Positions 22,898-47,976 of a stretch of DNA of 53,177 bases are shown one piece after another (positions within the stretch are counted from its first letter, which is position 1; each line of letters starts with the position of its first letter). The notes below the pieces were generated by a model that was not told where the DNA came from, did no database searches, and was given only the letters and a program-made list of their open reading frames with translations. The translations under genes and the position numbers were made by a program. The stretch is from an archaeon (GTDB lineage Archaea; B1Sed10-29; WALL01; WAMD01), in the NCBI GenBank assembly GCA_024275655.1, contig JAJRYR010000040.1:1-53177 (forward strand), in the 5' to 3' direction.

Positions 22898-22952
22898 CTT
22901 GGCTTAGATAGCACAAAAATTTAAATATCCAGGGCCCAAAAAATAACACCGC

Positions 22953-23026
22953 GGGCCCGTAGTCTAGTTGGTTAGGACGCCACCTTGACGCGGTGGAGAT
23001 CCCCGGTTCGAATCCGGGCGGGCCCA
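22953..23026 (+). tRNA. tRNA-Val (anticodon GAC)
   Basis: Acceptor GGGCCCG/CGGGCCC, anticodon stem CCACC/GGTGG with loop TTGACGC, T arm CCCGG-TTCGAAT-CCGGG. TTTAAATA at 22920-22927 lies about 26 nt upstream. Confidence 0.92.
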
Positions 23027-29451: not shown

Positions 29452-29524
<73 letters not shown>

Positions 29525-29546
29525 CTTCGCAAAAGGAGGTAATCAA

Positions 29547-32902: not shown

Positions 32903-32914
32903 AATATTTATATA
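32903..32914 (+). promoter_or_regulatory. TATA-like box of the pilus cluster
   Basis: AATATTTATATA ends 22 nt before the ATG at 32937, which is consistent with a leaderless first gene. Confidence 0.4.
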
Positions 32915-32936
32915 GATGGGCTTCTTTTTATTTTTG

Positions 32937-33527
32937 ATGGCAAAAAAAGGCGTTTCTCCAGTAGTGTCATATGTGCTCATACTGGCCTTACTAGTCACTA
33001 TAGCCGTTGGATCATATATATGGGCCACATACACGCAGGAACGCCTCCAAGACAGAATGGTGGTCTCCAACATGGAAAACCAGCTAGTGGGGTTGGCCAC
33101 GATAATAGAAAACGTGGCACATGGGGATGTAAACTACACTCTGACCCAAACAGTATACTACCCAAAAGGATTGCTTGAAGTCGAGTCAGATAAGGACTGG
33201 ATACGGTTCATTGTCCAAACTAACTCCGAGGTCTACCCTAAAACAGAATCCGTACCACAGACAGTGGACTACTGCACCAGCACATCAACAACCATACAGG
33301 ACAGCGAAACCACAGTAACAATGTCCAAGATCCCATTTACCAACCTATATCGGGGGGCAATTGGAAACGAGCTAGGTCAAAGAGTTGAAATGGTAATATG
33401 CTTCCCAGACATAGACCTTGTTTCCGGAGAAGGGTGCATTGGAAAATCTGGTCCTAGCAGCCGAGTAATCGTGAGAAAGATTGGGTATGCTGGAACAAAA
33501 CCAAGGGTGATGGTCCAGATATGTTAG
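32937..33527 (+). CDS. Archaeal type IV pilin-like protein (class III signal peptide, DUF1628-like N-terminus)
   Basis: MAKKG/VSPVVSYVLILALLVTIAVGSYIW: a basic leader ending in G, then a hydrophobic helix. Confidence 0.7.
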   Translation: MAKKGVSPVVSYVLILALLVTIAVGSYIWATYTQERLQDRMVVSNMENQLVGLATIIENVAHGDVNYTLTQTVYYPKGLLEVESDKDWIRFIVQTNSEVYPKTESVPQTVDYCTSTSTTIQDSETTVTMSKIPFTNLYRGAIGNELGQRVEMVICFPDIDLVSGEGCIGKSGPSSRVIVRKIGYAGTKPRVMVQIC

Positions 33528-33967
33528 GACAAGCAGAGGTTGGGTTCGTACTAAGAATTGCTCTGGGTTTCATAGTTTTAGTTAGCATGAGTTATCTAGC
33601 CTACACCTATATGGAAACAGCAGAAAAGGCAAAAATGACACAATTACTGGAAGGCCTGGCAGATTTCATCTCCAGAGAAATCGCCAGTGCAGTTATAGAA
33701 ACACCACAAAACACCACCATAATCAAAAGATACTACCTGCCAACGGTGGGGGATCCATTTGCTGGAAGCTACTTCGTGACTCTGGAAAAGTCCGGTTCGC
33801 GGGTGGTGCTGATGGCGCAATCGTATAGGTGGGCAGATGTAGGTGTTATAAAGCCTTTGTTCATTAATACATCATTGGTGGATGTTGGAGGAGTATCATC
33901 CCCCACCCTGCTATGCCTAAATGTGACCCACACTGGAAACAAATACTCTGTATACTTGGTGTGTTAA
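33521..33967 (+). CDS. Pilin-like protein (short leader MLG/QAEVGFVLRIALGFIVLV)
   Basis: N-terminal G followed by a hydrophobic helix. Overlaps the upstream pilin gene by 7 nt. Confidence 0.5.
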   Translation: MLGQAEVGFVLRIALGFIVLVSMSYLAYTYMETAEKAKMTQLLEGLADFISREIASAVIETPQNTTIIKRYYLPTVGDPFAGSYFVTLEKSGSRVVLMAQSYRWADVGVIKPLFINTSLVDVGGVSSPTLLCLNVTHTGNKYSVYLVC

Positions 33968-33968
33968 G

Positions 33969-35840
33969 ATGGGTATCCCCTATCCTGTGATGAAGAAGGT
34001 GGCAAAGAAATTGGCAAAGATGAGGGAGAGTGAAGAATCAAAGGCCACCCTAGAGGAAATACTAGAAATGTCCGAGGACGAGCTGAAGGCCAGGTTAAAA
34101 CCACCACAGAGAACAGTGAAACCCATAAATCTCTCGGAGATAGAGCCAGAAAAACTGGAAAAGGCAGTTGTTACAGAGAAGGAAGAGGAAGGGATGGGTA
34201 AGATAAAGGTGGTAGATTTCACCAAGATGGGCGAAAGCCTAGTCACAGTCGCCAGAGTTTCAGAAGAAGCTGAAAAGGTAAAACACATACCATTCAAGGC
34301 ACACCAGATACCTAAACAGTATGTAAAGAAGATACCATCAAAATGGAGGCCTCCTAGGCTAGAGGAAGTTAATTTAAAGTATGAATTGATCCCACCTTTT
34401 GCGTATGCAAGGATCAGATGGGAAAAGGACGAGTCCGCACTCAGGTATTATGTGATTGAACCATATCTCACTGAAGATCAAAAAAAGATACTTGACAACT
34501 TGAAAGAGCTGTTGATAGATGCGCTGGACGTCAATGTGTTTGAGATAAAGAACCCTGAAAAGATACGGGGAATGTTGAAGAAGAAAGTAGATTCCATCAT
34601 AAATGAATACGGGATAAGTTTAACTAAAGAGGAGTACGACAAGATACTTTATTACATATTCAGGGACTTTCTAGGATTGGAAAATATAGAGCCGTTAATG
34701 CATGATCCGGCATTGGAAGACATTTCATGCGATGGCGTGAAAGTCCCCATATACGTTTACCACAGAAAGTACGCATCTTTAAAGACAAACATTGTGTTTG
34801 AAGATGAGGAATCCTTGAACAAGTTCGTTATTAGATTAGCCCAGAAATGCGGAAAACACATTTCCGTGGCAGAACCATTGCTGGATGCTGCACTACCAGA
34901 CGGGTCCAGAGTTCAGGCTACATTCTCCGCTCACAGGGATATCGCCATGAAGGGTTCAACGTTCACAATAAGAAAGTTCACAAAGGATCCACTAACCATA
35001 ATAGACCTGCTGAACTTCGGTACATTGCCTGCAATCATGGCAGCATATCTCTGGTTGGCAGTTGAGTATGGAAAATCCATTCTAGTAGCAGGAGGTACCG
35101 CAACTGGTAGAACCACCTTCCTAGGGGCACTAAGCATGTTCATACCTCCAGAAAAGAAGATAGTTTCAATAGAGGATACACCAGAAATTAGGTTACCACA
35201 CGAGCACTGGGTCCAGAAGGTTGTGAGAACAGGATTCGGTAGGGAGGACATAACTGGAAGGAAGATGGGAGAAGTAACCATGTATGACTTGCTGAGGGCA
35301 GCATTGAGAGAAAGACCAGATGAGATAATAGTGGGAGAGGTCAGAGGTACGGAGGCATACGTTCTATTCCAAGGTATGGCCACGGGCCACCCGGGTATGG
35401 CTACCATACACGCAGATTCAGTAGATGCCGTGCTTCACAGATTACAAACACCCCCAATAAACTTGCCAGTGGGTTTGCTCCAGCACCTAAATATCGTAAT
35501 AATCCTGACAAAGGCCAGGGTCAAGGGAGTTGAAGTTAGGAGAGTAAAAGAACTTGCAGAGGTTGTTGGATTAACGAAAGAATTCAGACCAATAGTCAAC
35601 GAATTAATGAAGTGGAACGCAGCTGACGACTCGTTTGAATTCGTGTCTGACAAGTCCTATGTTCTAGAAGATATAATAGAAGAAAAGGGAATTGATGAAG
35701 CAAGCATTTGGGCAGAAATACAGAGGAGAGCATCCATACTGGAATGGATGCAAAAGAACAACATAAGGCACTACCTTGAAGTTGGCAAGATAATACGAAC
35801 ATATTATACAAACCCAGAGGAGGTGCTCAAGAACATATGA
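33969..35840 (+). CDS. Type II/IV secretion-family ATPase (ArlI/EpdL/TadA-like) with Walker A Lys->Arg
   Basis: Walker A reads AGGTATGRTTFL (AGA at 35109-35111). Walker B RPDEIIVGEVRGTEAY. His box MATGHPGMATIHADS. Charged N-terminal extension of about 150 aa. Confidence 0.88.
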   Translation: MGIPYPVMKKVAKKLAKMRESEESKATLEEILEMSEDELKARLKPPQRTVKPINLSEIEPEKLEKAVVTEKEEEGMGKIKVVDFTKMGESLVTVARVSEEAEKVKHIPFKAHQIPKQYVKKIPSKWRPPRLEEVNLKYELIPPFAYARIRWEKDESALRYYVIEPYLTEDQKKILDNLKELLIDALDVNVFEIKNPEKIRGMLKKKVDSIINEYGISLTKEEYDKILYYIFRDFLGLENIEPLMHDPALEDISCDGVKVPIYVYHRKYASLKTNIVFEDEESLNKFVIRLAQKCGKHISVAEPLLDAALPDGSRVQATFSAHRDIAMKGSTFTIRKFTKDPLTIIDLLNFGTLPAIMAAYLWLAVEYGKSILVAGGTATGRTTFLGALSMFIPPEKKIVSIEDTPEIRLPHEHWVQKVVRTGFGREDITGRKMGEVTMYDLLRAALRERPDEIIVGEVRGTEAYVLFQGMATGHPGMATIHADSVDAVLHRLQTPPINLPVGLLQHLNIVIILTKARVKGVEVRRVKELAEVVGLTKEFRPIVNELMKWNAADDSFEFVSDKSYVLEDIIEEKGIDEASIWAEIQRRASILEWMQKNNIRHYLEVGKIIRTYYTNPEEVLKNI

Positions 35841-36715
35841 ACGTAATCCGTAGGTACACGCTGTTGGCCTATTCCCTGCTGAAAAAGCATGTCAGGAGAG
35901 TTCTCCCTCATTTTAAACATTTAAAGCCAGTGTTAGAGTCGGCGTATTTTACCATACCAATTGAGGAGTATCTGGCAGCCATGATTCTAACCGCAGCACT
36001 GGCCTTTCCTGGCGCATTTCTCCTAGGAGTCGTTATTGGCATTGCACTTGGTTACCAGTGGCTAGGTGTTCTCATAGTGAGCATACTCTTCGCCATATTG
36101 GTGGACGGGCTGATCATTGGTGTTTTCATGATGTATCCACAGTACAAGCTGAAATCCATAAGCAACAACATAGAAAAATTTCTACCTTACGCGGCTACCC
36201 ACATGGCAACTATAGCTGGAACAGGTGTTCCTCCCCAGGTCATATTCCAGATGATTGGGGGGTTTAAGGACTACGGGATGGTATCCTACATTTGTGAAAG
36301 GATCGCTAGAAATGTGACTGTCTTCGGTTATGATATAGTAACAGCAATATCAGAAGAAGCAAAGAGGGTTCCCTCATATAAATTTAAGGACATACTGTGG
36401 AGCATTGCCTCTACAATAAGATCGGGTGGTGATTTAAGAGGGGTGTTGTTAGAAAAATCAAAAGCGCTGATGGAGGACCAAAGAAGAACAGAAGCCAAAT
36501 ACATAGAATTCCTGTCCATGATGGCAGAAGTGTATGCTACTGTATTTGTTGCCGGGACAATTATAATATTTGTAATGGTAAGTATAATCGGTGTCATAGG
36601 TGGTCTTCCAATTCCAGTTAAGAGCATACTTCAACTGTTCACTTATCTAATGATACCACTCGCATCCATAGCGTTCATTGTTATGATAGACTCAACAAAA
36701 CCAACGGGTGTGTAA
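35837..36715 (+). CDS. Pilus platform membrane protein, half-size (single T2SSF domain; TadB/EpdJ-like)
   Basis: LPYAATHMATIAGTGVPPQVIFQMIGG plus flanking TM segments. ATGA overlap with the ATPase gene. Confidence 0.75.
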   Translation: MNVIRRYTLLAYSLLKKHVRRVLPHFKHLKPVLESAYFTIPIEEYLAAMILTAALAFPGAFLLGVVIGIALGYQWLGVLIVSILFAILVDGLIIGVFMMYPQYKLKSISNNIEKFLPYAATHMATIAGTGVPPQVIFQMIGGFKDYGMVSYICERIARNVTVFGYDIVTAISEEAKRVPSYKFKDILWSIASTIRSGGDLRGVLLEKSKALMEDQRRTEAKYIEFLSMMAEVYATVFVAGTIIIFVMVSIIGVIGGLPIPVKSILQLFTYLMIPLASIAFIVMIDSTKPTGV

Positions 36716-37918
36716 ATGGTAAAAAGAGAAATGAATGCGTATCTAAAGGTGAAGGAGATATACAGGAAGATCCCACTATTTTGGAAAAACATAATTCTCA
36801 TACTGGCCGTTGGAATACTAATAGGGTTAATTGCCATATCAATTGTCGGTTTGTACATTGGAGTGACTGTTCTATTCTTTGCTATATCGGTGCCTTTCGC
36901 GGTATACACGTATCAAGAACGTAAGAGGATTGATGACATTGAAAAACACTTGTCAGATTTCCTGCGTGACCTGGCAGAATACAACGTGTCTGGATTGCCC
37001 CTAGCTCAAGCAATAATGCAAACTGCAAAGAGTGACTATGGGGCTTTAACACCTGAAATAAAGAAACTTGCTGCGGAAATCTCTTGGGGGGTGCCCTTTG
37101 AAGAGGCACTGGAAAGACTGCAGAATAGGATAAATAGTCCATTCGTGAGAAAAGCTGTGACAATTATAACCACTGCAGAGGCTCAAGGTGGAGAAGTAAA
37201 TGCAATACTCCAGACACTTGCAGAAGACCTCAGAAAATTGAAACAAATTGAGGAAGAAAGAAAGGGAAAACTGTCAGTGTACACTGCCACCATATATGTC
37301 ATATTCCTATTACTGCTGGCGATAATGGTGATGCTGACTGCCACACTGGCTCCAGCAATCCCAAAAATACAAGTGGCTGGTCAGTTCTTCGGTGGTATGG
37401 GGGGTGGCTTAACTGAAAAGGATTTCCGAACTCTCCTATTTCACGTCTCGCTAATTGAAGCATTCTTTGCTGGATTGATATCAGGGCAAATGGGTGAGGG
37501 CAGCGTAACTGCTGGATTAAAACACTCCATAGTGCTGGTGGCAATAACATTGTTTGCCTTCTCATTCGTATCTCCTGCCCCACCAGCACAAAAGATAGCA
37601 GAATCCATAATTGAAATTCCACCGGTGGAAGGGATACAGGGTACCTCACTCACTTACGAAAGCACTTTCAAGGAGAGCTTCACAGTCACAGATGTTGCCG
37701 ATAGAGTTAGAGAGCTGGCAAAGGAAAGAAACTTGCAAACGTATAAGACATTTACCCCGGACAAGGTAAAATTCGTAGTGACCACATGTAACGCATGTAA
37801 TGAAGGTAAGATAAACATTGATGAAACAACCGTAACTGTAAATGAACCCACAGACATGAAGTACAGAGTTTACTTCTCCGGTGGAAAGTATATTGTTGAG
37901 TTTAGTGATGCAACATGA
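36716..37918 (+). CDS. Pilus platform membrane protein, half-size (T2SSF domain) with ~110-aa C-terminal soluble extension
   Basis: LSDFLRDLAEYNVSGLPLAQAIMQTAKSDYGALTPEIKKLAAEISWGVPFEEALERL, TM segments, then a non-hydrophobic tail ending ...GGKYIVEFSDAT. Confidence 0.75.
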   Translation: MVKREMNAYLKVKEIYRKIPLFWKNIILILAVGILIGLIAISIVGLYIGVTVLFFAISVPFAVYTYQERKRIDDIEKHLSDFLRDLAEYNVSGLPLAQAIMQTAKSDYGALTPEIKKLAAEISWGVPFEEALERLQNRINSPFVRKAVTIITTAEAQGGEVNAILQTLAEDLRKLKQIEEERKGKLSVYTATIYVIFLLLLAIMVMLTATLAPAIPKIQVAGQFFGGMGGGLTEKDFRTLLFHVSLIEAFFAGLISGQMGEGSVTAGLKHSIVLVAITLFAFSFVSPAPPAQKIAESIIEIPPVEGIQGTSLTYESTFKESFTVTDVADRVRELAKERNLQTYKTFTPDKVKFVVTTCNACNEGKINIDETTVTVNEPTDMKYRVYFSGGKYIVEFSDAT

Positions 37919-38337
37919 GGGGGGATGCAAACATAGATTTTATAATGTCCTTAATGATATTCCTGGGATTTATAACATTCGTACTGGTATCCCTAAACCA
38001 AATCGTCATAACCCAAACCCCAAAACAAGAGTTACTTGAGTATCAAGAGTATCTCGTTTCAGGTATGCTGTTGAAAAAATTGTCATACGACGGAAGACTG
38101 AACATACTAGACCAATCAGTTTTAGATTCCGTCGTAAATTGTGACCAACTGGACCTGGGGGTCACCACACACATCTACTATGAGGTTTCCACTAGATCAA
38201 AAACGTGGAAGTGCACCCCATCAGAAAATCCATCCACTGCAATGCCCTACATACAACGGCCAGTGTACGTTAAACTGAAAAACGGTAGGGAAACACCGGG
38301 GATATTGAAGGTGTGGGCATGGGGCGAGGTTACATAA
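37915..38337 (+). CDS. Pilin-like protein (MRG/DANIDFIMSLMIFLGFITFVLV)
   Basis: Three-residue leader ending in R-G, then a hydrophobic helix. ATGA overlap with the upstream gene. Confidence 0.6.
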   Translation: MRGDANIDFIMSLMIFLGFITFVLVSLNQIVITQTPKQELLEYQEYLVSGMLLKKLSYDGRLNILDQSVLDSVVNCDQLDLGVTTHIYYEVSTRSKTWKCTPSENPSTAMPYIQRPVYVKLKNGRETPGILKVWAWGEVT

Positions 38338-38699
38338 GGATTGTTGAGGCAATACTGTTGTTGTTGGTGTTGTTTTCACTAATAGTATTCATCGCAGGTC
38401 TTGGGCCCACAACACCCCCAAATCCCAGCAATCCCCCCACACTGGTACGGTATGGGAAGGACTTGACGAACATGGTCTGCAACTCCGAGAGAGCCAGGAG
38501 ACTAATTTTAACAGGGAACCTAGTCCCCATATATCAAGACCTTGTATACGTTACGCCACCCGAATACAAGATACGGTTGATATCCGATGGAGCTGTGGTT
38601 GGAGAAACACCGAGTTCAGGAAACTTGGTGTCCTATGGGTGCGTGATCTCTGACATGTTCGGAAATCAGAAGAATGTGACTGTTCAGGTGTGGGTATGA
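38319..38699 (+). CDS. Pilin-like protein (MGRG/YIRIVEAILLLLVLFSLIVF)
   Basis: The ATG at 38319 is preferred over the GTG at 38313. Class III signal-like N-terminus. Confidence 0.6.
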   Translation: MGRGYIRIVEAILLLLVLFSLIVFIAGLGPTTPPNPSNPPTLVRYGKDLTNMVCNSERARRLILTGNLVPIYQDLVYVTPPEYKIRLISDGAVVGETPSSGNLVSYGCVISDMFGNQKNVTVQVWV

Positions 38700-39919
38700 A
38701 AGGGCAGTACTTCCTACCAATGGTGCTACTGGCTTTATTTCTAGTCACCATGATATTCGTGTACTACTCATCAACAAACCAGGTGGCCATCTATCAAACA
38801 TACTCCTACAAGCCCACCCTAGGCGACAAGCTATCAAAAGTGGTGAGTGACATAAAGCAAGCATATGTGGAAAGCATATACCTGGGCAATCCATCTCATT
38901 TAGATGAAGTCATCACGCAATTAACATCTCAAGCTGCCCAAAGAGGCGAAACACTGCTGGTTTCATGTGCAAGGGGAGAAGCTGGGAACAACTTTTGGGT
39001 TGCGTGTTCTGTAAATTTGACCAGTGGGGAAGATCTCGCCAAGACAAAGTTCAACTACACATATGTTGTACCATTCAATATCAAGACATACCTCGACCCC
39101 TATTTCGCTCAAGAGACTAGTTACTTCTACAAAGGTGACAAGGTTTACCTTTGGATTTCCGGGAACAACTCAGACAAAGTGGCTGTTAAAGTTTACGATC
39201 CGTATGGTATAGTTTACACAAACTGGACTGGACAATTTGAAAACTGGCACTGGAACGCCAGCTTTACCCCAAGTATAAGCGGAAACTGGACGATATCCGC
39301 GGAGGATCTAAACACCAGTCAAGTAACTACTAAAAGAATATACGTAAACGTAATCCAGATTACGCTCAAAACCTTCAATTCAAATGGAACCGAACAGACG
39401 GATTTTTATCCGGGTGAAACTGTAAACGTGAGTGTGTGGTTGAAGGACCTGTACAATAACCAACCGAACTGCTCAGTGAAGGTGGACTTTACAAATGCTA
39501 TAGGAAAACAAGCATACAGTTTGGAAGGTCTAGCGGAAGACGGCTTCTTCACTGGACTAGTTAAACTAAGCCCCTGGGAAATTCCAGGGAACATGACCAT
39601 AACAGCAACAGAACACTGTTATTGGTCACAAGATCAAATAAACATAACCATATTGGGTACCTACTGGGATAGATTCGTAAAGATAGAACCACCAAGGATG
39701 TACTACAACAAACCACACACAGAAGTATTCGGTTCCACTTGTGGGTACAGCGATTGGTACAGTTCAAATGAAACCAGTTACAACATTGTTCCATTTTACA
39801 TTGAGAACACTTCCTCCAATACTAACCTCTTGATTAATCAAACAACCCTAGTGATAGATGTCCCGAATGTAAACGTGTCATGGATACATTTCCTAGGCAG
39901 CAAGAGGGTGATACTATGA
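38696..39919 (+). CDS. Large pilin-like protein with beta-rich, sequon-rich extracellular domain
   Basis: MKG/QYFLPMVLLALFLVTMIFVYY. ATGA overlap at 38696. At least 12 N-x-S/T sequons (NLT, NYT, NNS, NWT, NAS, NTS, NGT, NVS, NMT, NIT, NET, NQT). YPGETVNVSVWL is a CARDB/Ig-like block. Confidence 0.6.
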   Translation: MKGQYFLPMVLLALFLVTMIFVYYSSTNQVAIYQTYSYKPTLGDKLSKVVSDIKQAYVESIYLGNPSHLDEVITQLTSQAAQRGETLLVSCARGEAGNNFWVACSVNLTSGEDLAKTKFNYTYVVPFNIKTYLDPYFAQETSYFYKGDKVYLWISGNNSDKVAVKVYDPYGIVYTNWTGQFENWHWNASFTPSISGNWTISAEDLNTSQVTTKRIYVNVIQITLKTFNSNGTEQTDFYPGETVNVSVWLKDLYNNQPNCSVKVDFTNAIGKQAYSLEGLAEDGFFTGLVKLSPWEIPGNMTITATEHCYWSQDQINITILGTYWDRFVKIEPPRMYYNKPHTEVFGSTCGYSDWYSSNETSYNIVPFYIENTSSNTNLLINQTTLVIDVPNVNVSWIHFLGSKRVIL

Positions 39920-40161
39920 AAAAAGTGATCTTGATAACCATCGTTGGAGGATTAATCGCATTGATGGTATCTTTACTGATAGTGGTATCCATGGAAAAAA
40001 CAGCGAGCCCAGTCCCGGTGATTTACAACCACACGTTGGAACCTGAAAAGGAATCTGTTCCCGAGCCCGCACTGACGTTCAACGAAACTGCGCCACCCTC
40101 AAGCAAATTGAATCCCGATGAAGATGCGCCTCCAATGATAGCGGAGGTGCCATCAAAATGA
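39916..40161 (+). CDS. Small N-terminally anchored protein with Pro-rich tail (hypothetical)
   Basis: MKKVILITIVGGLIALMVSLLIVV then ...SPVPVIY..PEKESVPEPA..APPSS..DAPPMIAEVPSK. ATGA overlaps at both ends. Confidence 0.5.
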   Translation: MKKVILITIVGGLIALMVSLLIVVSMEKTASPVPVIYNHTLEPEKESVPEPALTFNETAPPSSKLNPDEDAPPMIAEVPSK

Positions 40162-43100
40162 GATGGAGTTTGTTATTCACTGTAATGTTGATCTCGCTAT
40201 CTGTGGCAGTAACAATCACAAATTCTGGAAGTTACGACACGATCAACGCCAAGCACTACAAGATAGATGCCGTGGTGGATCCAACTCTCTCCAACTTTGG
40301 ACAGTTGACAAACTGTTATGCAAACGACTACAACCCGACACAGGTATTGAGGTCTTCTGCAGACGGTCACTGCTTGTTCATGAGGGTGTACAAGGCCTCT
40401 CTTCCAGGATCTGGATGGTATGCATTAGAAACCGCGCTTGGAGGAGGATCCAGGTACATAGAAGAGGACGGTCCTTTCCGAGTAAAGCTGGTTTTCACGT
40501 ATGCGGACGGTGCCGTGAACATAACCTATTATTTTTACGATGATTTCTTCGTCCAAAGGTTCACATCCCAGGGATATTCCGGTAGCTACAATGATGGATT
40601 TGCAAATGCTTTTGCAGTGAATGATCTAACTAACACCGTTGGGCCAGACTCCTGGGGATTGAACTACGTGGAAGGTTCTTCAACCACATCTCCAATAGAT
40701 ACCAGCACCAACTCCGCAACCACGAGTTATGACACTTTTGCCTTGGGTGGCCAAACTGCATGGACCAGCTGGTATTCGAGTAGTCCATCTGGCCTACTAC
40801 TGGGGGCAGTATATCCGCCAATACCTGCTAGTGCTACAGACTATGCTAGCTACGCTTATGATAGAGAGGACACCACCACAACCTATGACCAGTTCAGTGC
40901 AGGGCACACCAACACAAATGGGTATGTATCCGTTGACTTCGTGTCTGGCATATTCCAGTACGGGGTGGGGAACTCTGCAGATTTGACCAGAGGGTTATTT
41001 TTGCATTACACGAATCCTGCCATTTTGACCTGTGTAGAGGATTGCGACTCTGCAGATTTTGATAGCATGGAATTCATATACTCCGTAATGCCCGCCCCTG
41101 GAACAAGGGTTAATGTAACAAAGTTCAGCGTTACTGGAAATGCAAACTGGATAAACAATCAAACTGTCTATGTGAAAGTTTGGAATGCTGTGGGATCCGA
41201 GGTTTACAAGTCCACCGATGGTGTAAACTGGACATTATATCTAAACTCCTCACAGGTGCAACAAGAGGACAATTACATAATATTCGGCGATGAAATTGCA
41301 CCGGGACAAACTGTTTATTACTTAATACGAAAATCTAGGGGAACAGGTGTAACTGTTCCCAAAGAGGTTATTCCCTCGATGGATCCTCGCCCCTTTTTGG
41401 ACTCTGGCGATACCGCGTATCCAAAAGCCATTGTAATAGCAAGTGATGGATCAATCGTGGACGATGCGACTGTTAAAGCACTAATAACCGGTCCAACTTC
41501 GGCAAGTTTGGAGTTGATGTTCAATAACGACACTCTCGCATACAATGGAACGCTGGGAACCACAGGATATCCCGCAGGAGTGTACACTGAGACAGTTTAC
41601 GCAAACAAGACAATTCCCAGAGACACGAATATCACGGAGTGTAGCTCCTACTGGGGGTTTGACTGTGGGTATGGTCCTCCGGAAACAGGGGATAACACCT
41701 TTGACACGTGCCCCACAGGAACTGGAAACGACGAATCTGTTGAGGGTATTTGGATAAACGCAACTAGAGTTTATCCTGGGGATACAGTGGAGGTCACATG
41801 CGAATTTGACACATACGATACTCTTTATGATCAAGAGTACATATGGTACTACAACGGAACTGGATGGAGAAAACTCTGGGAAGGAGATGTTGGGGCAAAC
41901 GTAGTTGCAAACAAAACAGTAACATTCACGGTGGACAATGTAACAGGAACTCACTGGGTAAGGTGTTCCATAAGCTATTCCCCGCTAGACCAACCGTGTC
42001 AGGACTCTGGATCATGGTACGATAACGATGACCTGGCTTTTGAGGTAGTGCAGCCAAACGTGAACATTTCCAATCACACCCACTTCCACATATATCCAGG
42101 CGAGGGTGTTTCTGTGTACTCCATCCCATTTGGAGACAGTGAAAACAAAACATTCCTAGAAAACACACATATTGTGGCGGCACTGGACAGTAGAAAACTA
42201 GTGTACTACGTGTTCCAAAAGGACACAGGGGTGGAGTACACCTTCAAGAATCCAGAATACCTGCACTCCCTTGGGGGGCTGGGAATCTCAAGTGAAGGGG
42301 GTTTGGAAGGCGGATCCACCTTCTCATGGGATGCCGGTGAAAACTTAACTAGTGGAACAGTGATTGCAAATACAAGTGTTGTAGAACCACTGGGCAAAAA
42401 AGTTTGTTTTGTGTGCTACACTGCTGGATCACCAAGCGCCACATATGAATTGCCATACATACAAGCACTGGAGGCTCTGGGCTACACTGTGGAATACAAC
42501 ACTCCCACATGTAACTATGATTATACTGATATACAATATGGAACTGCAGACTTTAGTGGTTATGATTTTTGGGCCCACAGCTGGATCTATGTAAACAGTC
42601 CTGGAACTCTGGCAAATGCAAAAACCAAGTACGTAGATGAGCTGGGCCAGAACGAGTTGATACTCGGACCGGACGCCACGTATTTAGCAGATTTTGGATA
42701 CGCAAACGTAAACGAGAGAAGATACTATCCTTCAGCGATTGCACAAATAAAAACAAACGACGGGTTCTTACCAGAAGAGGATTATGATATCGGAGAAACT
42801 GTCAAGCTAACGAACGATCCATCAAGCAGGTACCAGTATGTAACTAGAGAAGGCAATCTGATCCCAGAGGTAACTCCAGTATTAACAGCTGGTGGTTCAA
42901 CGGACTTCGCAACCTCTGGTTACTACATAAACCAAACTAGTGGGGGGAAGATGATCTACTTTGGAATTGCAGAAGATGCTGTGCAGCAGTTAACAAACTA
43001 CTCCGACAATGAGGATAACGGGCTGGAAGTTCTAGATCACTTCGCAAAATGGGTGGGGGGATCTAGGGTTTACATTCTAGCCAACATAACTTTGAGAGAT

Positions 43101-44480
43101 GAAGACGATGATTACTTGCTGTTCTCACTAACAAACTTTTCATCAAACATTCAGAATATAAGTGACCTGTTGGTTGCGTATTCTGGGAGAGTTGGTTCTA
43201 GCTTGTCAGATGATAGAGTCCATTTGGAAAATGGCAGCGACTGGGCAGTAACTGATCTACCAACGAGACAATGGATCTCCGCAGATGGAAACTATTCCAA
43301 CTTCTACGACAACAGCACCATCGATCCAGAGGATAATGTAACAATATCCTTGGTACGTTGGATATCTGATCCAAGTCCTTACTTCTTCATTAGGAGAAAT
43401 TCTGATTCAGAAATGGGCATGCTAAACTACTCAACATCCGGGCTGTCAAGTAGTTCAAAGTTAGCATACCTCTTCGTGTTTACATTAGGAGATTTCATGT
43501 CTATCGATCAATGGATACTGACTGTAGAACACAACGAACTGCCAATCCCCAACTTCATGACCAGGCCAGCAATCTCCTGGAACCAGTCCAAGCTAGATCT
43601 AGGACCAGTAACCGCAGGGTCCTCTGAATCAAAGAATGTTACCCTTCAATTAACTGGTTGGCACGATAATATCAACATAACAGTAATATCTGGCAATGCG
43701 ACTGATTCGCTAGGCGATTACTTCATAAGTGTTAATCCAACACTTGTTAGTTTGGCAAATGGTGAAATCCAAGTATCAGTAACGTGTAGTCCACCAGCCA
43801 CGCAAGCTACCGGATACTACGAGGTAATTGTTAACGCCAGGTCAAAGAGAAATCCAATAGGAGCCAACCTAACAGTTGGTTGCCAAGTCGGGATTGTAAA
43901 TGCATCCCTAGAGTGGAATCAAACACAGTTGAATCTAGGAAGTGTGTACCAGGGAAGGGAGTCCACTGGCCTAGTTAAAGCTGTTCCATATGAAACCAAT
44001 ACAAATGTAATTTTGGAGCAACTGGGAGGGAACGCGACCTTCATACTCCCAAATGTTACTTACATAAATTCATTATCCAGTTCTCAAGATGTGGAGTTCA
44101 CATGCAAACCATATCCATGGACAGAACCTGGGAACTACTCTGCAATCTGGAACATAAGATCTGATCAACAACCTAGCGGGGACAACTTGACGGTCTTCTG
44201 TGAAGTGAAAAGGGCAAGACAAATTGTTGTGGTTTACACAGATGGAACCTGGGATATATCCCCATTCAATCTAGACGACTGGTTGCTGGGCACTGGAGAT
44301 GTACAATCTGCATTTCCATACTCCTGTGATACCTCAAGTGGAACTGCCTACATCTATTACTACAATATCACAGTAAACCCTAACAAGATAGTGGACAAGA
44401 TAGTATTTAGCGATAATTCTACCAGCGAGCTCCAGCAGATAACCGCGATAACAATGGAGAGAACACCAGGCACATACTAG
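40158..44480 (+). CDS. Giant (1440 aa) secreted protein, probably glycosylated; candidate pilus-associated adhesin or cargo
   Basis: Sec-type signal MRWSLLFTVMLISLSVAVT. Composition rich in Thr/Ser/Asn/Tyr/Gly. Many N-x-S/T sequons. CARDB-like block YPGDTVEVTCEFD. Two tandem ~100-aa Ig-like repeats near the C-terminus. No C-terminal TM segment. Confidence 0.7.
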   Translation: MRWSLLFTVMLISLSVAVTITNSGSYDTINAKHYKIDAVVDPTLSNFGQLTNCYANDYNPTQVLRSSADGHCLFMRVYKASLPGSGWYALETALGGGSRYIEEDGPFRVKLVFTYADGAVNITYYFYDDFFVQRFTSQGYSGSYNDGFANAFAVNDLTNTVGPDSWGLNYVEGSSTTSPIDTSTNSATTSYDTFALGGQTAWTSWYSSSPSGLLLGAVYPPIPASATDYASYAYDREDTTTTYDQFSAGHTNTNGYVSVDFVSGIFQYGVGNSADLTRGLFLHYTNPAILTCVEDCDSADFDSMEFIYSVMPAPGTRVNVTKFSVTGNANWINNQTVYVKVWNAVGSEVYKSTDGVNWTLYLNSSQVQQEDNYIIFGDEIAPGQTVYYLIRKSRGTGVTVPKEVIPSMDPRPFLDSGDTAYPKAIVIASDGSIVDDATVKALITGPTSASLELMFNNDTLAYNGTLGTTGYPAGVYTETVYANKTIPRDTNITECSSYWGFDCGYGPPETGDNTFDTCPTGTGNDESVEGIWINATRVYPGDTVEVTCEFDTYDTLYDQEYIWYYNGTGWRKLWEGDVGANVVANKTVTFTVDNVTGTHWVRCSISYSPLDQPCQDSGSWYDNDDLAFEVVQPNVNISNHTHFHIYPGEGVSVYSIPFGDSENKTFLENTHIVAALDSRKLVYYVFQKDTGVEYTFKNPEYLHSLGGLGISSEGGLEGGSTFSWDAGENLTSGTVIANTSVVEPLGKKVCFVCYTAGSPSATYELPYIQALEALGYTVEYNTPTCNYDYTDIQYGTADFSGYDFWAHSWIYVNSPGTLANAKTKYVDELGQNELILGPDATYLADFGYANVNERRYYPSAIAQIKTNDGFLPEEDYDIGETVKLTNDPSSRYQYVTREGNLIPEVTPVLTAGGSTDFATSGYYINQTSGGKMIYFGIAEDAVQQLTNYSDNEDNGLEVLDHFAKWVGGSRVYILANITLRDEDDDYLLFSLTNFSSNIQNISDLLVAYSGRVGSSLSDDRVHLENGSDWAVTDLPTRQWISADGNYSNFYDNSTIDPEDNVTISLVRWISDPSPYFFIRRNSDSEMGMLNYSTSGLSSSSKLAYLFVFTLGDFMSIDQWILTVEHNELPIPNFMTRPAISWNQSKLDLGPVTAGSSESKNVTLQLTGWHDNINITVISGNATDSLGDYFISVNPTLVSLANGEIQVSVTCSPPATQATGYYEVIVNARSKRNPIGANLTVGCQVGIVNASLEWNQTQLNLGSVYQGRESTGLVKAVPYETNTNVILEQLGGNATFILPNVTYINSLSSSQDVEFTCKPYPWTEPGNYSAIWNIRSDQQPSGDNLTVFCEVKRARQIVVVYTDGTWDISPFNLDDWLLGTGDVQSAFPYSCDTSSGTAYIYYYNITVNPNKIVDKIVFSDNSTSELQQITAITMERTPGTY

Positions 44481-44488
44481 GTGGGTAA

Positions 44489-44806
44489 ATGAGAGTTATA
44501 CTAGCTAAAACCATTTGGGACAGAGTTCTGGGACTGATGTTCAAGAAAGATTTCAGGGATGTTCTAGTAATCGTAATGCCCTACGAATCTAGATTGAACG
44601 GGATACACACGTGTTTCATGAGATTCCCGATAGATGTTTACTTTTTGGACTCAAATGGGGGACTAGTGGGGAAGAGGTTGGAGGTTCCTCCCTGGAAGCT
44701 TGGGGTTTATCCAGATAAGCCAGCAAGGTACATAGTTGAAGTGAAAGCAGGGAGAAAAATTAACTTGGATGAAATTAGGAGAATATTGGGGCTGAGAAAA
44801 GTTTAA
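44489..44806 (+). CDS. DUF192 family protein
   Basis: AKTIWDRVLGLMFKKDF...VLVIVMPY...IHTCFMRFPIDVYFLDSNGGLVG...YIVEVKAG matches the DUF192 (COG1430) pattern. GGTGGG lies before the ATG. Confidence 0.7.
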   Translation: MRVILAKTIWDRVLGLMFKKDFRDVLVIVMPYESRLNGIHTCFMRFPIDVYFLDSNGGLVGKRLEVPPWKLGVYPDKPARYIVEVKAGRKINLDEIRRILGLRKV

Positions 44807-44843
44807 ATTGGATTTTTGCTAAAATAATAGTGGGGGAGAGGGA

Positions 44844-46499
44844 ATGTATTTGCTCAGAACTGAAAAATGTACTAGTTGTAACGCATGTTTAGAAAGTTGC
44901 CCTATTTCTAAGAACCCTAAGATCCAAGATTGCAAGCACTGTCCAGATGCACCCTGCAAAGAGGCGTGCAGATATAATGCTTTCTACGAAGTTTCTCCTG
45001 GAGTTTACGGGATAGATCCCGAGATATGTGTAGGGTGTGGGGAGTGTGCAAAAGCCTGCCCATATGGTGCCATAGTTATTGAGGATAACCTAGCAAAGAA
45101 ATGTACTCTTTGCGGGGAGTGTGTAGTGGCTTGCCCGTTAAATGCTCTAAAGATTGTTGAAACAGAAGAGGAAAAGAGGGAAAAAGAAGACCTACTCGGC
45201 TGGAAAAAACTGAACGAAGGTGTGCCACTGAATGTGTACACGCCCAGCATTCAAGAAGCCAGGCTATTATCCTCCTTTCTAAAACTCCACAGGGAAATGT
45301 TAAGGGAGGACACATATGGATTAGAGAACTTATTCAAGCAATTCCTAGATGCACTGGGGGTAAAACTAGACAAAGATCAGTACAAAGGGTTGCTAAAGTT
45401 GGCTGAGTACGAAACCTCTGGTTTTTCGGTCATAACTCCGCTACTAGAAAACGATGAGTTGGAAGAGATCGCAATAATCGAGAACGATCCCATAAGAGCA
45501 TTTCACAGAAAAAGAGGGTGGATCGACTACAATATGGCCCTGGTAAACAGGGAGAGAATTATAGAACTGGCAAATAAGATGGCCTCCAATCTAGATAGGA
45601 GACTAACACTTCAAGAACCAAGGATGAATGCAAACTTGCCGGACGGATCAAGGCTTCACGCTGTCATACCTCCGGCATCGCACAAGGCCAGTCTTACAAT
45701 CAGGAAATTCAGAAAGAAACCCTTTTCCCCTAGAGAGCTCATAGAAAACAACACATTGTCCAGCGAAGCTCTTGCTTTCCTCTGGATTGGAATGCAACTG
45801 GACTTAAACCTAGTGATCTCTGGATCAACAGGATCTGGAAAAACCACAACACTAAACACCATTCTATGTTTTCTACCAGAGAATCAAAGGCTAATTATCA
45901 TAGAGGAAACTCCGGAGATTGCAGTGTACCACCCTCATCACGTGCGTTTGATAGTAAACAAAGAAAAAGGGTTAACCATGGACAAACTAGTTGAGGACAC
46001 TCTAAGAATGAGGCCAGACAAGGTCATAGTGGGAGAAGTGAGAGAGAAAAATGAGGTAAAGGCATGGGTGAACACAATGCTCGCAGGCCAAGGAAAGGGA
46101 AGCCTAGCCACCTTCCATGCGCTCAGCAGTAGGGAAACTATAAACAGATTACTTAGCCTAGGCATATCAGAAACCGACCTGTCTGCACTGGACTTGATAG
46201 TGGTGCAGAGAAGGTGGACGGACTACGAAACTGGAAAAGAAATCAGAAGAGTATTTGAGATAACTGAAGTGAACTGGACCAAGAAAATAAACCTGAACCC
46301 AATATTCTTGTATGACCCTGATAAAGATGCTTTGGTAAGGACCAGGAATAAAAGCAAAGTCATGGAGAGGGCAAAAAGATTCCTGAAGATAGATCCCAGA
46401 AGAGAGCTAAAAAGGAGAAGCAGATTTCTAGAAAAAACCAACCCCGACCTAATGGATGCTTTCCATCAAATAAGTAGGTGGGGAAAGAGATGTACCTAA
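44844..46499 (+). CDS. Polyferredoxin (four 4Fe-4S motifs) fused to a type II/IV secretion-family ATPase
   Basis: Residues 9-100: CTSCNACLESCP, CKHCPDAPCKEAC, CVGCGECAKACP, CTLCGECVVACP. ATPase part: Walker A ISGSTGSGKTTTLN, Walker B RPDKVIVGEVRE, His box GSLATFHA. Confidence 0.85.
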   Translation: MYLLRTEKCTSCNACLESCPISKNPKIQDCKHCPDAPCKEACRYNAFYEVSPGVYGIDPEICVGCGECAKACPYGAIVIEDNLAKKCTLCGECVVACPLNALKIVETEEEKREKEDLLGWKKLNEGVPLNVYTPSIQEARLLSSFLKLHREMLREDTYGLENLFKQFLDALGVKLDKDQYKGLLKLAEYETSGFSVITPLLENDELEEIAIIENDPIRAFHRKRGWIDYNMALVNRERIIELANKMASNLDRRLTLQEPRMNANLPDGSRLHAVIPPASHKASLTIRKFRKKPFSPRELIENNTLSSEALAFLWIGMQLDLNLVISGSTGSGKTTTLNTILCFLPENQRLIIIEETPEIAVYHPHHVRLIVNKEKGLTMDKLVEDTLRMRPDKVIVGEVREKNEVKAWVNTMLAGQGKGSLATFHALSSRETINRLLSLGISETDLSALDLIVVQRRWTDYETGKEIRRVFEITEVNWTKKINLNPIFLYDPDKDALVRTRNKSKVMERAKRFLKIDPRRELKRRSRFLEKTNPDLMDAFHQISRWGKRCT

Positions 46500-47179
46500 T
46501 AATTCCTGCTATCCTGCTATTGGGGGGATTGGGGATATCCATAACCTTCCACAGTAATCTTCTAGTTTCCATCTCCCCAGGAATTTTAGCGTTAATGGCA
46601 GGAATGTTCTGGAAAAAGCTATCAACGGAGAGAGAAATCGGAAGGATAGAGGCAGAAATCCCAAACGCTGCCATGAAGATGGCCATGTCCCTAGATTCCG
46701 GAATGAGTTTCCTTCAATCCATGCGGGAAATAGCCCTGGGGAATGATAAATTAGCAGAAGAGATGCGGCACGTCATGAGAGAGATAGATGGTGGATCCAG
46801 CGTGCCTTTAGCATTAGAAAACTCTGCTAGAAAGGTGAAATCCAGAGAATACTCCAAATTCATAAACAGATTGATACTTTTGTACAAATTTGGAGGTAAC
46901 GGGGACTCCTTAAGAAAATTGTCCAAAGACATTGTAGAGCAGAGAAAGATAGAGCTGAAACGGTATAGTGGAAAGGCGATTATGTATTCCCTAATTCTCG
47001 TTTCCCTCTCAAGTATTCTCCCCGCCATGTTCCTTGCTTACCTAGTTGTGGGCTCAATGTTTATGAGCATAGATGTGACACCAATAGACGCTCTGCTAAT
47101 TCCCAGTCTTTTATTCCCCAGCTTGAACCTAGCTCTGATATTGCTTATACAATCGAAAAAACCTAGATTCGTGTGGTAA
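46490..47179 (+). CDS. Pilus platform membrane protein, half-size (T2SSF domain; TadB-like)
   Basis: IPNAAMKMAMSLDSGMSFLQSMREIA...GSSVPLALENSA.. with flanking TM segments. The ATG at 46490 follows AGGTGGGG and overlaps the ATPase stop. Confidence 0.7.
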   Translation: MYLIIPAILLLGGLGISITFHSNLLVSISPGILALMAGMFWKKLSTEREIGRIEAEIPNAAMKMAMSLDSGMSFLQSMREIALGNDKLAEEMRHVMREIDGGSSVPLALENSARKVKSREYSKFINRLILLYKFGGNGDSLRKLSKDIVEQRKIELKRYSGKAIMYSLILVSLSSILPAMFLAYLVVGSMFMSIDVTPIDALLIPSLLFPSLNLALILLIQSKKPRFVW

Positions 47180-47181
47180 AA

Positions 47182-47976
47182 ATGTTTAACTGGAAAAAAG
47201 ATCTGGCGTACCTCGGGCTGGAAGATAAAAAGAATACAATACTGGCAGGAGCTATTCTAATCTCACTGCTACTTCTGCTCGTGAACCCCATTCTGTGTTT
47301 AATCCCTCCCATAATAGCAATTGGCTTACCAATGTATCTAGCAGAGGTTAAGAGAGCGAAAATCAGGAAGAGCATTCCAGACCTTGCAATGGATATATCC
47401 AGCCTTTGGGGGGTTCTACCCCTAAGAGACATACTAAAAATGTCTGAAAATCAAGCATTGAGAGAAGCCGGTCTGATGATAGAGAGAGGCGCATCTGTAA
47501 AGGAGGCCTTAAAATCGGCAGTTAAAAAGGAACCAGAAATAAAACCTATCGCAGACATACTCCTCACTTGCTACAAAACTGGAATTGATGCCTCAAAGCT
47601 CCTAAGTTCCCTGGCTGAGGAAATAGCAAGTAAAACTTCAATAGACGAGGAAATGAAGGCTAGTCTAACCATAGAAAAGATGACATTGGTAGGTGCTTCA
47701 GGTGTAATTGTGCCATTCGTGTTGGGTGCCATGTCCTCCCTAACCAATTCATTTTACTTTCCGAACATAGCAGAAATGGGGATAACCACGGTGTCTCAAG
47801 AGACAAAGCAAATGGCAATATTGGGGAGCCAGATATACGTTATTCTATATGCTCTGATCGTTTCATTTTACCTAGCTCTATCCAGTGGTAAATTAAAGAA
47901 AGCCGTGTTGTATTCTGGGGTCTTAGTCCCTCTAGCATTTCTCATTTTTAGTCTGGCCTCTACAATAAAATTCTAG
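47182..47976 (+). CDS. Pilus platform membrane protein, half-size (T2SSF domain; TadC-like)
   Basis: IPDLAMDISSLWGVLPLRDIL...ERGASVKEALKSAV...CYKTGIDASKLLSSLAEEI with flanking TM segments. Confidence 0.7.
   Translation: MFNWKKDLAYLGLEDKKNTILAGAILISLLLLLVNPILCLIPPIIAIGLPMYLAEVKRAKIRKSIPDLAMDISSLWGVLPLRDILKMSENQALREAGLMIERGASVKEALKSAVKKEPEIKPIADILLTCYKTGIDASKLLSSLAEEIASKTSIDEEMKASLTIEKMTLVGASGVIVPFVLGAMSSLTNSFYFPNIAEMGITTVSQETKQMAILGSQIYVILYALIVSFYLALSSGKLKKAVLYSGVLVPLAFLIFSLASTIKF

Follow-up and report, generated by a model that had tools for sequence, protein, structure and literature searches.

A conserved archaeal gene block that probably encodes two different type IV filament machines head to tail

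We analyzed a 53,177-nucleotide (nt) stretch of archaeal DNA (contig JAJRYR010000040.1 of assembly GCA_024275655.1; hereafter the window), which carries a cluster of type IV filament genes. As read from the list of open reading frames (ORFs) and their translations, 14 co-directional ORFs on the + strand follow one another unbroken from 32916/32937 to 47976. The cluster falls into two parts, each with one secretion ATPase and two half-size platform genes (Table 1). Module 1 (32937-44806) comprises five pilin-like genes (pil1 to pil5), ATPase1, the platform genes F1a and F1b, a small anchored protein, a giant secreted protein and a DUF192 protein. Module 2 (44844-47976) comprises ATPase2, which begins with a predicted ferredoxin domain, and the platform genes F2a and F2b. 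The original prediction, made from the window sequence alone, had counted 16 genes between 32903 and 47976; we count 14, which is also the sum of the genes it listed. The window was compared with related stretches numbered L001 to L093, in which L002 and L004 repeat L001 and L003.

The genes are tightly packed. The ATGA overlaps at 35837, 37915, 38696, 39916 and 40158, the 7-nt overlap (ATGTTAG) at 33521 and the TAAATG at 36713-36718, all pointed out in the original prediction, were each read in the sequence. Elsewhere, genes overlap by 19 nt at 38319-38337 and by 10 nt at 46490-46499, and are separated by 1 nt at 33968, by 2 nt at 47180-47181 and by 8 nt before the DUF192 gene. The widest intergenic gap in the cluster, 37 nt (44807-44843), lies immediately 5' of ATPase2. 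In several genes the listed GTG start was replaced by an internal ATG after comparison with the N-termini of orthologs and with gene calls in related contigs; for pil1, pil4, pil5, the small anchored protein, F2a and F2b, the likely true start is the ATG at the first coordinate given in Table 1.

Table 1. Genes and candidate control elements of the cluster, with positions in the window (aa, amino acids; TM, transmembrane; SD, Shine-Dalgarno; arrow, putative cleavage site)
Feature	Coordinates	Strand	Length (aa)	Description	Evidence
TATA-like box TTTATATA	32907..32914	+		predicted module 1 promoter	read from sequence; center ~26 nt upstream of ATG 32937
pil1	32937..33527	+	196	PilA-like candidate major pilin	class III signal MAKKG↓VSPVVSYVL
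pil2	33521..33967	+	148	pilin-like	N-terminal hydrophobic helix; weak DUF7266 match
ATPase1	33969..35840	+	623	AfGspE/FlaI-like secretion ATPase	T2SSE E 9e-37; PilB3_C E 0.004
F1a	35837..36715	+	292	N-terminal-half platform	one T2SSF domain, E 4e-12
F1b	36716..37918	+	400	C-terminal-half platform	one T2SSF domain, E 4e-21; C-terminal extension of ~115 aa
pil3	37915..38337	+	140	pilin-like, MRG↓DANIDF	DUF7285 E 5e-5; DUF7287 E 0.009
pil4	38319..38699	+	126	pilin-like, MGRG↓YIRIVEAIL, Glu at +6	conserved N-terminus; class-III rule
pil5	38696..39919	+	407	large, pilin-like, MKGQ↓YFLP	beta-rich body; 16 N-glycosylation sequons
Small anchored protein	39916..40161	+	81	N-terminally anchored, Pro-rich	one N-terminal hydrophobic segment, Pro-rich tail
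Giant	40158..44480	+	1440	secreted mosaic surface protein	Sec-type signal, no other TM segment, 41 sequons
DUF192 protein	44489..44806	+	105	no signal peptide	DUF192 E 4e-11
TATA-like box TTTAAAT	44802..44808	+		candidate internal promoter	36-42 nt upstream of ATPase2 start
SD-like run GGGGGAGAGGG	44832-44842	+		candidate ribosome-binding site	follows TTTAAAT box
ATPase2	44844..46499	+	551	polyferredoxin (residues 1-~105) plus secretion ATPase	T2SSE E 3e-38; Fer4 E 5e-17; Fer4_11 E 7e-7
F2a	46490..47179	+	229	half-size platform	T2SSF E 4e-13
F2b	47182..47976	+	264	half-size platform	T2SSF E 5e-5, 23.8 bits vs cut-off 25.2

Profile searches, which the original prediction had recommended, matched T2SSE in both ATPases and T2SSF in all four half-size membrane proteins. 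One of the four matches, that of F2b, is weak; F2b orthologs in L003, L086 and L089 also match T2SSF. The analysis bears out the proposal of two complete ATPase-plus-platform modules, each with its platform split over two genes, and supports assignment of the locus to the type IV filaments and not to the archaellum. In agreement with the predicted lack of an archaellin and of Arl accessory genes, no Pfam or NCBIfam model for archaellin, ArlF, ArlG, ArlH, ArlC/D/E or ArlX matched any of the 14 proteins. A prepilin peptidase had likewise been predicted to be missing. Neither the cluster nor the other membrane proteins scanned gave a Peptidase_A24 match, and no GxGD[VAILMF][KR] motif was present in the six frames of the window. 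A 281-aa membrane protein (20372-21217) was considered as a candidate peptidase and rejected, as it had no Pfam match and no GxGD motif.

Both modules recur together in related archaea. The gene order UPPS (- strand), pil1, pil2, ATPase1, F1a, F1b, pil3, pil4, pil5, small protein and giant where present, DUF192, Fer4-ATPase2, F2a, F2b, PAC2 (DUF473) and flavin reductase was found in nine loci (L001, L003, L086, L087, L088, L089, L090, L091 and L092) and in part in L085; wherever a related locus offers sufficient sequence, the block is present together with its housekeeping flanks. Identity to the window among these loci ranged from 94% to 38% for ATPase2 and from 97% to 58% for ATPase1, and reached down to ~30% for pil1; several pilin families could not be detected in the loci most distant from it. 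Relatives diverged to ~40% identity share a core of 12 genes. The original prediction had proposed gene order in related genomes as a check and had allowed that the two modules might be neighbors in this genome only. Because the block recurs in related loci, their adjacency is not an accident of this genome. A viral or plasmid origin of the block was also considered and rejected, as no sign of one was seen and housekeeping genes flank the block in every locus. L086 is source-labeled Micrarchaeota, and L089 and L092 lie on contigs of 1.08 and 1.17 Mb, compatible with small genomes. By the source labels of its more distant relatives, the lineage belongs to the DPANN-like (Micrarchaeota/Diapherotrites), small-genome archaea.

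The ATPases of the two modules were compared in a neighbor-joining tree of 60 sequences (380 trimmed columns, 200 bootstraps), in which AfGspE was the only Clade 2 reference. The ATPase1 family was monophyletic in 200/200 replicates, grouped with AfGspE in 165/200 and with AfGspE plus FlaI in 200/200. The ATPase2 family formed a clade of its own (200/200); the split that unites it with bacterial CpaF and Thermococcus-type sequences was recovered in 171/200, and a pairing with the Thermococcus group alone in 1/200. The named outgroups, as well as locus L006 and the bacterial loci with DUF192 described below, came from among the matches listed in a genome-collection scan dominated by generic CpaF motifs. 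By these groupings the module 1 ATPase is of the euryarchaeal 'Clade 2/System 2' kind, and ATPase2 is placed on the Tad/Epd ('System 1') side as a separate clade; in a tree without EpdL, module 2 is at best a candidate for System 1. Identity between the modules is 28% for the two ATPases, 24% for F1a and F2a, and 24% for F1b and F2b. A recent duplication was rejected on the basis of these identities and of the different clades, and the two modules are deep paralogs.

Open reading frames with a class III signal were sought in six frames of the window by a crude rule (M, 0-10 residues, [KR][GA], then a hydrophobic 18-mer). The rule selected four ORFs, pil1, pil3, pil4 and pil5, all of them in the cluster. 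The presence of five pilin-like genes, as originally predicted, is well supported, since class-III-type N-termini are kept in orthologs of all five: M(K/R)KG↓VSPxVSFVL in pil1, MLKGQ↓LxIGF in pil2, MRG↓DxNxDF in pil3, M(G)RG↓(Y/F)xRxxE in pil4 and MKGQ↓(Y/F)F in pil5. These genes represent five prepilin-like families with predicted class-III-like N-termini and putative cleavage sites. The candidate major pilin, pil1, has one N-terminal hydrophobic segment and weak matches to TIGR02537 (E 0.014) and Pilin_N, and DUF7287 matches reach E 3e-7 among pil3 orthologs. Weak matches to MG2/immunoglobulin (Ig)-like domains were seen in pil5 and its relatives, and pil5 resembles the variable-length Ig-like minor pilin described as arCOG02911 (PMC4858521).

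ATPase1 scored 427 bits against AfGspE (PDB 2OAP), 285 against FlaI and 158 against CpaF. Against the ArlI/FlaI equivalog model NF058587 it reached 429.6 bits, under the cut-off of 550. Its platform partners correspond to the two halves of ArlJ, F1a aligning with positions 7-248 and F1b with positions 279-540 of 555. The Walker A motif of ATPase1 reads GGTATGRTT, with Lys381 replaced by Arg (codon AGA at 35109-35111), and the remaining catalytic motifs are present. The original prediction had remarked on this GRTT and had described each motor as atypical in a different way. The motif is indeed there, but Arg is unique to this genome and is no trait of the system: Lys is kept in 118/118 listed ATPase1 homologs with a readable Walker A, including a 95%-identical protein, and the corresponding codons in L001 are GGT AAG ACC (Lys). 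The exchange was accordingly rejected as a family trait of ATPase1. In other P-loop ATPases, replacement of the Walker A Lys by Arg usually cripples hydrolysis. Either Arg381 is confined to this strain, in which case it probably impairs hydrolysis, or it stems from an error in the assembly. Some ATPase1 homologs, of ~950-1090 aa, carry the precomputed Pfam families PF14528 and PF14890.

ATPase2 carries a feature of its own. Fer4 families match its residues 1-110, where four CxxCxxCxxxC(P)-type motifs place 16 Cys in residues 9-97. Across 25 homologs (39-62% identity), 12 of these Cys are invariant and 3 nearly so, and all the catalytic motifs checked (Walker A GxxGxGK[ST], Asp box, Walker B and His box) are invariant. 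The N-terminus is a predicted four-cluster polyferredoxin with putative cluster binding. An AlphaFold2 (AF2) model of ATPase2 had a predicted local distance difference test (pLDDT) score of 90.7, with 83-92 in the Fe-S region, and its best fold matches were 2OAP, FlaI and CpaF. ATPase2 scored 163 bits against AfGspE, 135 against FlaI and 133 against CpaF, and its 198.2 bits against the FlaI equivalog model NF058587 fall below the cut-off of 550; it carries the CpaF-type motifs LRMRPD and EETPE. Most of its 120 best matches carry precomputed Fer4 domains, and those with a named source are from Micrarchaeota, Diapherotrites or an 'archaeon'. Among the best matches alone, more than 100 sequence clusters have the four-cluster ferredoxin domain fused to a secretion ATPase. 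In L088 the ferredoxin is a separate 125-aa ORF (9642-10019) that overlaps the ATPase ORF (10001-11278) by 19 nt, either a natural gene fission or an assembly frameshift, and the ATPase2 homolog of L006 has no Fer4 domain. No pilin-like ORF was found in 44489-47976. Module 2 is a pilin-less motor that consists of the Fer4-ATPase2 and a second split platform. As a separate observation, some proteins of ~830-1190 aa (e.g., L009, 35-3592) are double secretion ATPases in tandem, with two Walker A motifs each; part of them are labeled Hydrothermarchaeales.

Several observations bear on whether the modules form one unit. The DUF192/ATPase2 junction is interrupted by HicA/HicB in L003 (9522-9966), by a PIN-type toxin and its partner in L087 (9173-9932) and by a minus-strand ORF in L089 (9303-9902), a distribution that marks the junction as an insertion hot spot. 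The TTTAAAT box is kept in the window, L001, L088 and L003, in the last of these downstream of the HicAB insertion, and the SD-like run GGGGGAGAGGG is kept in 7 loci. A/T-rich boxes lie at the same distance upstream of pil1 in L086, L089 and L090 as TTTATATA in the window. We take TTTATATA to be the predicted promoter of module 1, giving rise to a leaderless or near-leaderless mRNA, and the TTTAAAT box to be a candidate promoter of module 2. Two transcription units are plausible because of the toxin-antitoxin insertions, the kept TTTAAAT box and SD-like run, and the box at leaderless distance before pil1. Module 2 also occurs without module 1. In L006 the order is UPPS (- strand), several unrelated genes, DUF192, an ATPase2 homolog, F2a, F2b and PAC2, with no module 1 there, and in L093 the Fer4-ATPase2 and two platform genes stand alone. 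By gene content, the modules are separable, and they are probably transcribed separately.

The DUF192 gene, the hinge of the two modules, was present in all 11 distinct syntenic loci, and in most of these it either overlaps the preceding gene or directly adjoins it. It also directly follows CpaF-TadB-TadC genes in bacteria (L031, 13268-13612; L038, 13174-13521; L071, 13151-13552), these loci being from two Chloroflexota and one Acidobacteriota. The protein gave no sequence match in the PDB and has neither a signal peptide nor a TM segment. In the literature searched, we found no paper on the function of DUF192 or on its position after CpaF-TadB-TadC.

The most variable part of the block is the giant. 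The 1440-aa protein had no Pfam match, with no DUF2341, LamG or PilY1 domain. The original prediction had the two modules wrapped around a giant cargo or adhesin gene; the comparison did not sustain this, the giant being a variable insert that is missing from three orthologous loci (L088, L089 and L090), in which pil5 abuts DUF192. In other loci the protein is 613, 993, 1449, 1634 or 4101 aa long, with unrelated bodies. Among the relatives, several proteins in this position contain LamG_3, FG-GAP or DUF2341, and that of L085 is a DUF2341/LamG protein. Judged from this distribution, the giant gene is optional and mosaic. The 81-aa anchor protein beside it showed detectable conservation in L001 only. 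Small ORFs of similar size occupy the anchor position in L003 (68 aa), L086 (92 aa) and L091 (91 aa), and those of L086 and L091 start with class-III-like N-termini.

What the giant of the window has in common with those of L087 and L092 is confined to the last 80-110 residues (L087, 42% identity over 81 aa, E 8e-13). These define a conserved C-terminal domain of ~85-100 aa (residues ~1340-1440; 44175-44477) with the motif VVYTDGTW...KIVDKIVF...QITAITLEK. A word-indexed search with the C-terminal 111 aa returned nothing; the domain was recovered by an exhaustive HMMER search with the giant against a library of 1.84 billion proteins, which yielded 153 relatives. Most of these match a ~150-aa Cys-containing domain at residues ~485-640 (41610-42080), for which there is no Pfam model and which over 100 proteins, 100-4748 aa in length, have in common. 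Matches to the C-terminal domain, by contrast, are confined to the very end of proteins 399-1556 aa long. The AF2 model of this domain (pLDDT 77) gave no significant Foldseek match, the best, in the PDB, having an E of 0.75, and PHROGs gave no match for any of the proteins without a family assignment. PilY1-type tip adhesins combine a variable body with a conserved C-terminal module. By analogy with them, the variable body of the giant on its conserved C-terminal domain fits a docking domain. The proteins at the adhesin position in the Micrarchaeota-type loci L086 (7624-9465) and L091 (6637-9618) share another conserved C-terminus (...YINC...KCWS). It seems that the C-terminal module carried by the variable bodies is particular to each lineage.

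Downstream of the block, a minus-strand ORF (49328-53140) is cut short by the contig end. It encodes the C-terminal portion of a surface protein that measures ~1500 aa and bears a Sec signal as well as a C-terminal anchor. In L002 (7010-13937, - strand) and L003 (14458-21421, - strand), this surface protein is followed by a 149-aa multi-TM protein and three proteins with class-III-like N-termini, all convergent with the block. Module 2 has therefore two possible pilin sources nearby, module 1 and this convergent cluster. About 20 kb upstream of the block, a KaiC-family ATPase (12953-13714, - strand; Pfam E 1e-75) adjoins a winged-helix protein (13841-14341, - strand); KaiC-like ATPases have been proposed as regulators of archaeal pili (Makarova et al. 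2016, PMC4858521). A tRNA cluster at 21949-23026 comprises Glu-TTC, Ala-GGC, Leu-GAG and Val-GAC, with Ala-CGC at 29452-29525, and no rRNA was found in the window.

We consider it probable that the region encodes two different type IV filament machines placed head to tail in one conserved surface-structure block. From pil1 to the giant, and probably including DUF192, module 1 has the predicted make-up of a euryarchaeal adhesive pilus operon of the System 2/Clade 2 type. A prepilin peptidase encoded elsewhere would cleave pil1-pil5, and ATPase1, acting on a heterodimeric F1a/F1b platform, would polymerize pil1 into the shaft, pil2-pil5 serving as minor or tip pilins. The giant, exported by Sec and glycosylated, would be displayed on the pilus or cell surface by way of its conserved C-terminal domain, and its fast-changing body would bind a host or substrate. 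Module 2 would be a separate motor of the Tad/Epd side, probably with its own promoter. Because it is without pilins of its own, it must use pilins in trans, which would be those of module 1 or of the convergent downstream cluster. The four-cluster ferredoxin domain would tie the activity or stability of this motor to the redox or iron state of the cell. In this picture, gene content, homologies, conservation, separability and the pattern of Fe-S ligands are established from sequence, whereas the roles in a filament, the docking of the adhesin, redox gating and the transcription units are inferred.

A first alternative is a single machine in which two motors serve one pil1-pil5 pilus, one of them extending it and the Fe-S one retracting or remodeling it, or each working under different redox conditions. 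Module 2 never has its own pilins and directly follows module 1 in every Fer4-bearing syntenic locus with upstream sequence, and, with such short gaps and the conserved SD-like run, the genes could be co-translated if transcribed into a long mRNA. In this genome, moreover, the Lys-to-Arg exchange in ATPase1 could leave ATPase2 as the working motor. Bacterial extension and retraction ATPases, however, share one platform, whereas here each ATPase has a platform pair of its own, and the modules are deep paralogs from different clades with 28% and 24% identity. In addition, L006 and L093 have module 2 but no module 1 in its vicinity, toxin-antitoxin genes have come to separate the modules in L003 and L087, and the further pilin-like cluster just downstream could serve module 2. 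Published work points both ways: the Aap pilus retracts although archaea lack PilT (PMC11178785), and, in a proposal by Makarova et al., pilin sets are common to paralogous ATPase/TadC modules, yet the two system types of Mia14, described below, lie ~80 genes apart. A two-motor machine for assembly/retraction or secretion had been suggested in the original prediction; on balance we regard one machine with two motors as unlikely.

The two systems could also be unrelated in function and adjacent by inherited synteny, with module 1 self-sufficient and module 2 serving the downstream cluster. The flanking housekeeping genes are as syntenic as the modules, separate promoters are plausible, and proteins of the downstream cluster have class-III-like N-termini; in L093, the lone Fer4-ATPase module is accompanied by a convergent anchored protein of 1543 aa and by a multi-TM protein. 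The giant of L093, however, is not detectably homologous to that of the window, PAC2 and flavin reductase lie between module 2 and the downstream cluster, and in Micrarchaeota-type loci the downstream genes change strand and content. We hold this reading to be unlikely; it differs from two machines in one block only in which pilins module 2 uses.

A fuller version of the dual-motor idea, in which ATPase1 extends an adhesin-tipped pilus and ATPase2, its platform and DUF192 retract or remodel it according to the redox or energy state sensed by the symbiont, within a single organelle of host-dependent archaea, appears decidedly unlikely. Highly improbable is a type II secretion system (T2SS)-like device in which module 2 drives a pseudopilus that pushes the giant or another cargo out, recognized through DUF192 and the C-terminal domain of the giant: the giant gene does end 8 nt before DUF192 here and overlaps it in L085-L087, giants share only that C-terminal domain, and Tad-type modules are linked with DUF192 in bacteria as well as archaea, but the giant has an ordinary Sec-type signal and is absent in L088, L089 and L090, all of which retain DUF192 and module 2. 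DUF192 itself, lacking a signal peptide and TM segments, would stay on the cytoplasmic side, apart from a Sec-exported cargo, and the locus encodes neither a secretin nor another conduit. As the cells of DPANN-type archaea are bounded by one membrane, a T2SS-like second step would be without an obvious barrier to cross.

The preferred reading of two machines in one block also has points that weigh against it. UPPS, PAC2 and flavin reductase are as fixed in position as the modules, and adjacency may reflect a static genome and not functional coupling. The placement of ATPase2 on the Tad/Epd side comes from a neighbor-joining tree without EpdL in which the ATPase2 branch is long, and could be a long-branch artifact. 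The allegiance of DUF192 and the operon boundary are ambiguous, as the gene overlaps or adjoins the end of module 1 in most loci yet stays with module 2 in L006 and with the Tad operons of bacteria. If Arg381 is real, module 1 may lack power from its own ATPase in this genome. The C-terminal domain of the giant has no recognizable fold match, and its docking role is drawn from analogy.

DPANN-type archaea attach to hosts, and pili and giant surface proteins are their presumed contact organs, encoded by loci that are mostly labeled 'hypothetical'. Hypervariable adhesin bodies on a conserved C-terminal domain suggest a way in which host specificity might change without rebuilding the machine. 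The Fe-S ATPase family provides a physical link, of the Rosetta-stone type, between Fe-S proteins and archaeal pilus motors, and the same theme is unexplained for AapX in Sulfolobus. DUF192, tied to Tad-type motors in archaea and bacteria alike, provides a link across domains. Were the dual-motor reading true, it would describe the first dedicated second motor for archaeal type IV pili (T4P) and the first secretion ATPase controlled by Fe-S. The 12-gene core is a ready target for cryo-electron tomography, proteomics and multimer modeling in the few cultured Micrarchaeota.

Among known systems, module 1 most resembles System 2, as in the PilB3C3 and PilB4C4 loci of Haloferax volcanii. ATPase1 is nearest GspE of Archaeoglobus fulgidus (AfGspE) and has a weak PilB3_C tail, the module has class-III pilins of its own, one of them PilA-like and another large and Ig-like, the locus contains a large adhesin-like protein, and the prepilin peptidase would be encoded elsewhere. 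It differs in that a second, unrelated motor module directly follows and in that the platform is split into F1a and F1b. A recent preprint (Sivabalasarma and Albers 2026), which assigns large adhesins to System 2 and places System 1 in DPANN with split platforms, gives a single platform gene for System 2. On this criterion the literature is not agreed, as Makarova et al. (2016, PMC4858521) described many loci of Clade 1 and Clade 2 that have two tadC genes.

Module 2 resembles Epd/System 1 and bacterial Tad loci in combining an ATPase with two half-size platform genes. The likeness to Epd (EpdJ/EpdK) and to TadB/TadC drawn in the original prediction holds for these split platform genes and does not extend to pilins and peptidase: module 2 has no Flp/Epd-type short pilin, EpdA/TadV peptidase, TadZ/FleN or secretin, and its ATPase has an N-terminal polyferredoxin domain. 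The score of ATPase2 against CpaF (133 bits) does not exceed those against FlaI (135) and AfGspE (163). Of the bacterial Tad components, Flp pilin, TadV, TadZ and RcpA secretin were not detected among the cluster proteins, and those shared are the CpaF-like, TadB/C-like and DUF192 components only. Motor modules without pilins are themselves familiar: ATPase/TadC modules lacking pilins use pilins in trans, and paralogous modules were proposed to share pilin sets (PMC4858521).

The original prediction knew of no described archaeal filament locus with two complete motor modules, each atypical in its own way, around a giant gene. Two ATPases have been reported in one locus in Aciduliprofundum (Makarova et al. 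2016, PMC4858521), and Micrarchaeota with both a Clade 1 and a Clade 2 system, in separate loci, were already described (PMC5498576). The latter include Mia14 ('Ca. Mancarchaeum acidiphilum'), which has a Clade 1 system with a CpaF-family ATPase and two TadC, a Clade 2 system with pilins, linked LamG proteins, one prepilin peptidase elsewhere and no archaellum (Golyshina et al. 2017, PMC5498576). The likeness is close, with one CpaF-family ATPase plus two TadC on one side and one archaellum/pilus-type ATPase plus TadC and class-III pilins on the other. The Mia14 loci (MIA14_0170-0177 and 0252-0260), however, are ~80 genes apart, whereas in the window and 10 related loci the systems are contiguous; by its published description, with which the comparison was made, no ferredoxin domain or DUF192 is mentioned for Mia14. 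A similar pairing, of two conserved T4P loci in 'cluster 2' DPANN (Nanohaloarchaeota, Woesearchaeota and relatives), was reported in a preprint (Hamm et al. 2023). Both loci contain CpaF/TadC, one with and one without pilins, and are thought to mediate host contact; they differ in being separate, in being defined by sigma-1-like coiled-coil proteins and in coming from lineages other than the present one, and the section that describes them mentions no ferredoxin fusion.

The Fe-S module has counterparts in AapX, an Fe-S protein needed for assembly of the Aap pilus (PMC11178785), and in arCOG05056 of methanococcal Clade 1 loci, in that an Fe-S or Cys-rich protein is genetically tied to an archaeal T4P motor. 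AapX and arCOG05056 are separate proteins, whereas here the Fe-S module is fused to the ATPase. A recent census of archaeal type IV filament systems makes no mention of a polyferredoxin-ATPase fusion. In the literature searched, a fusion of ferredoxin to a secretion ATPase was not described, nor were the polyferredoxin-ATPase family, the contiguous conserved tandem, the cross-domain DUF192 link and the conserved adhesin C-terminal module. The giant is comparable to PilY1/DUF2341 proteins as a large secreted protein inside a pilus operon after the minor pilins, and DUF2341 giants have been proposed as PilY-like tip adhesins (Makarova et al. 2016). Both system types and their components are of known kinds, and current models of type IV filaments are not overturned by these results.

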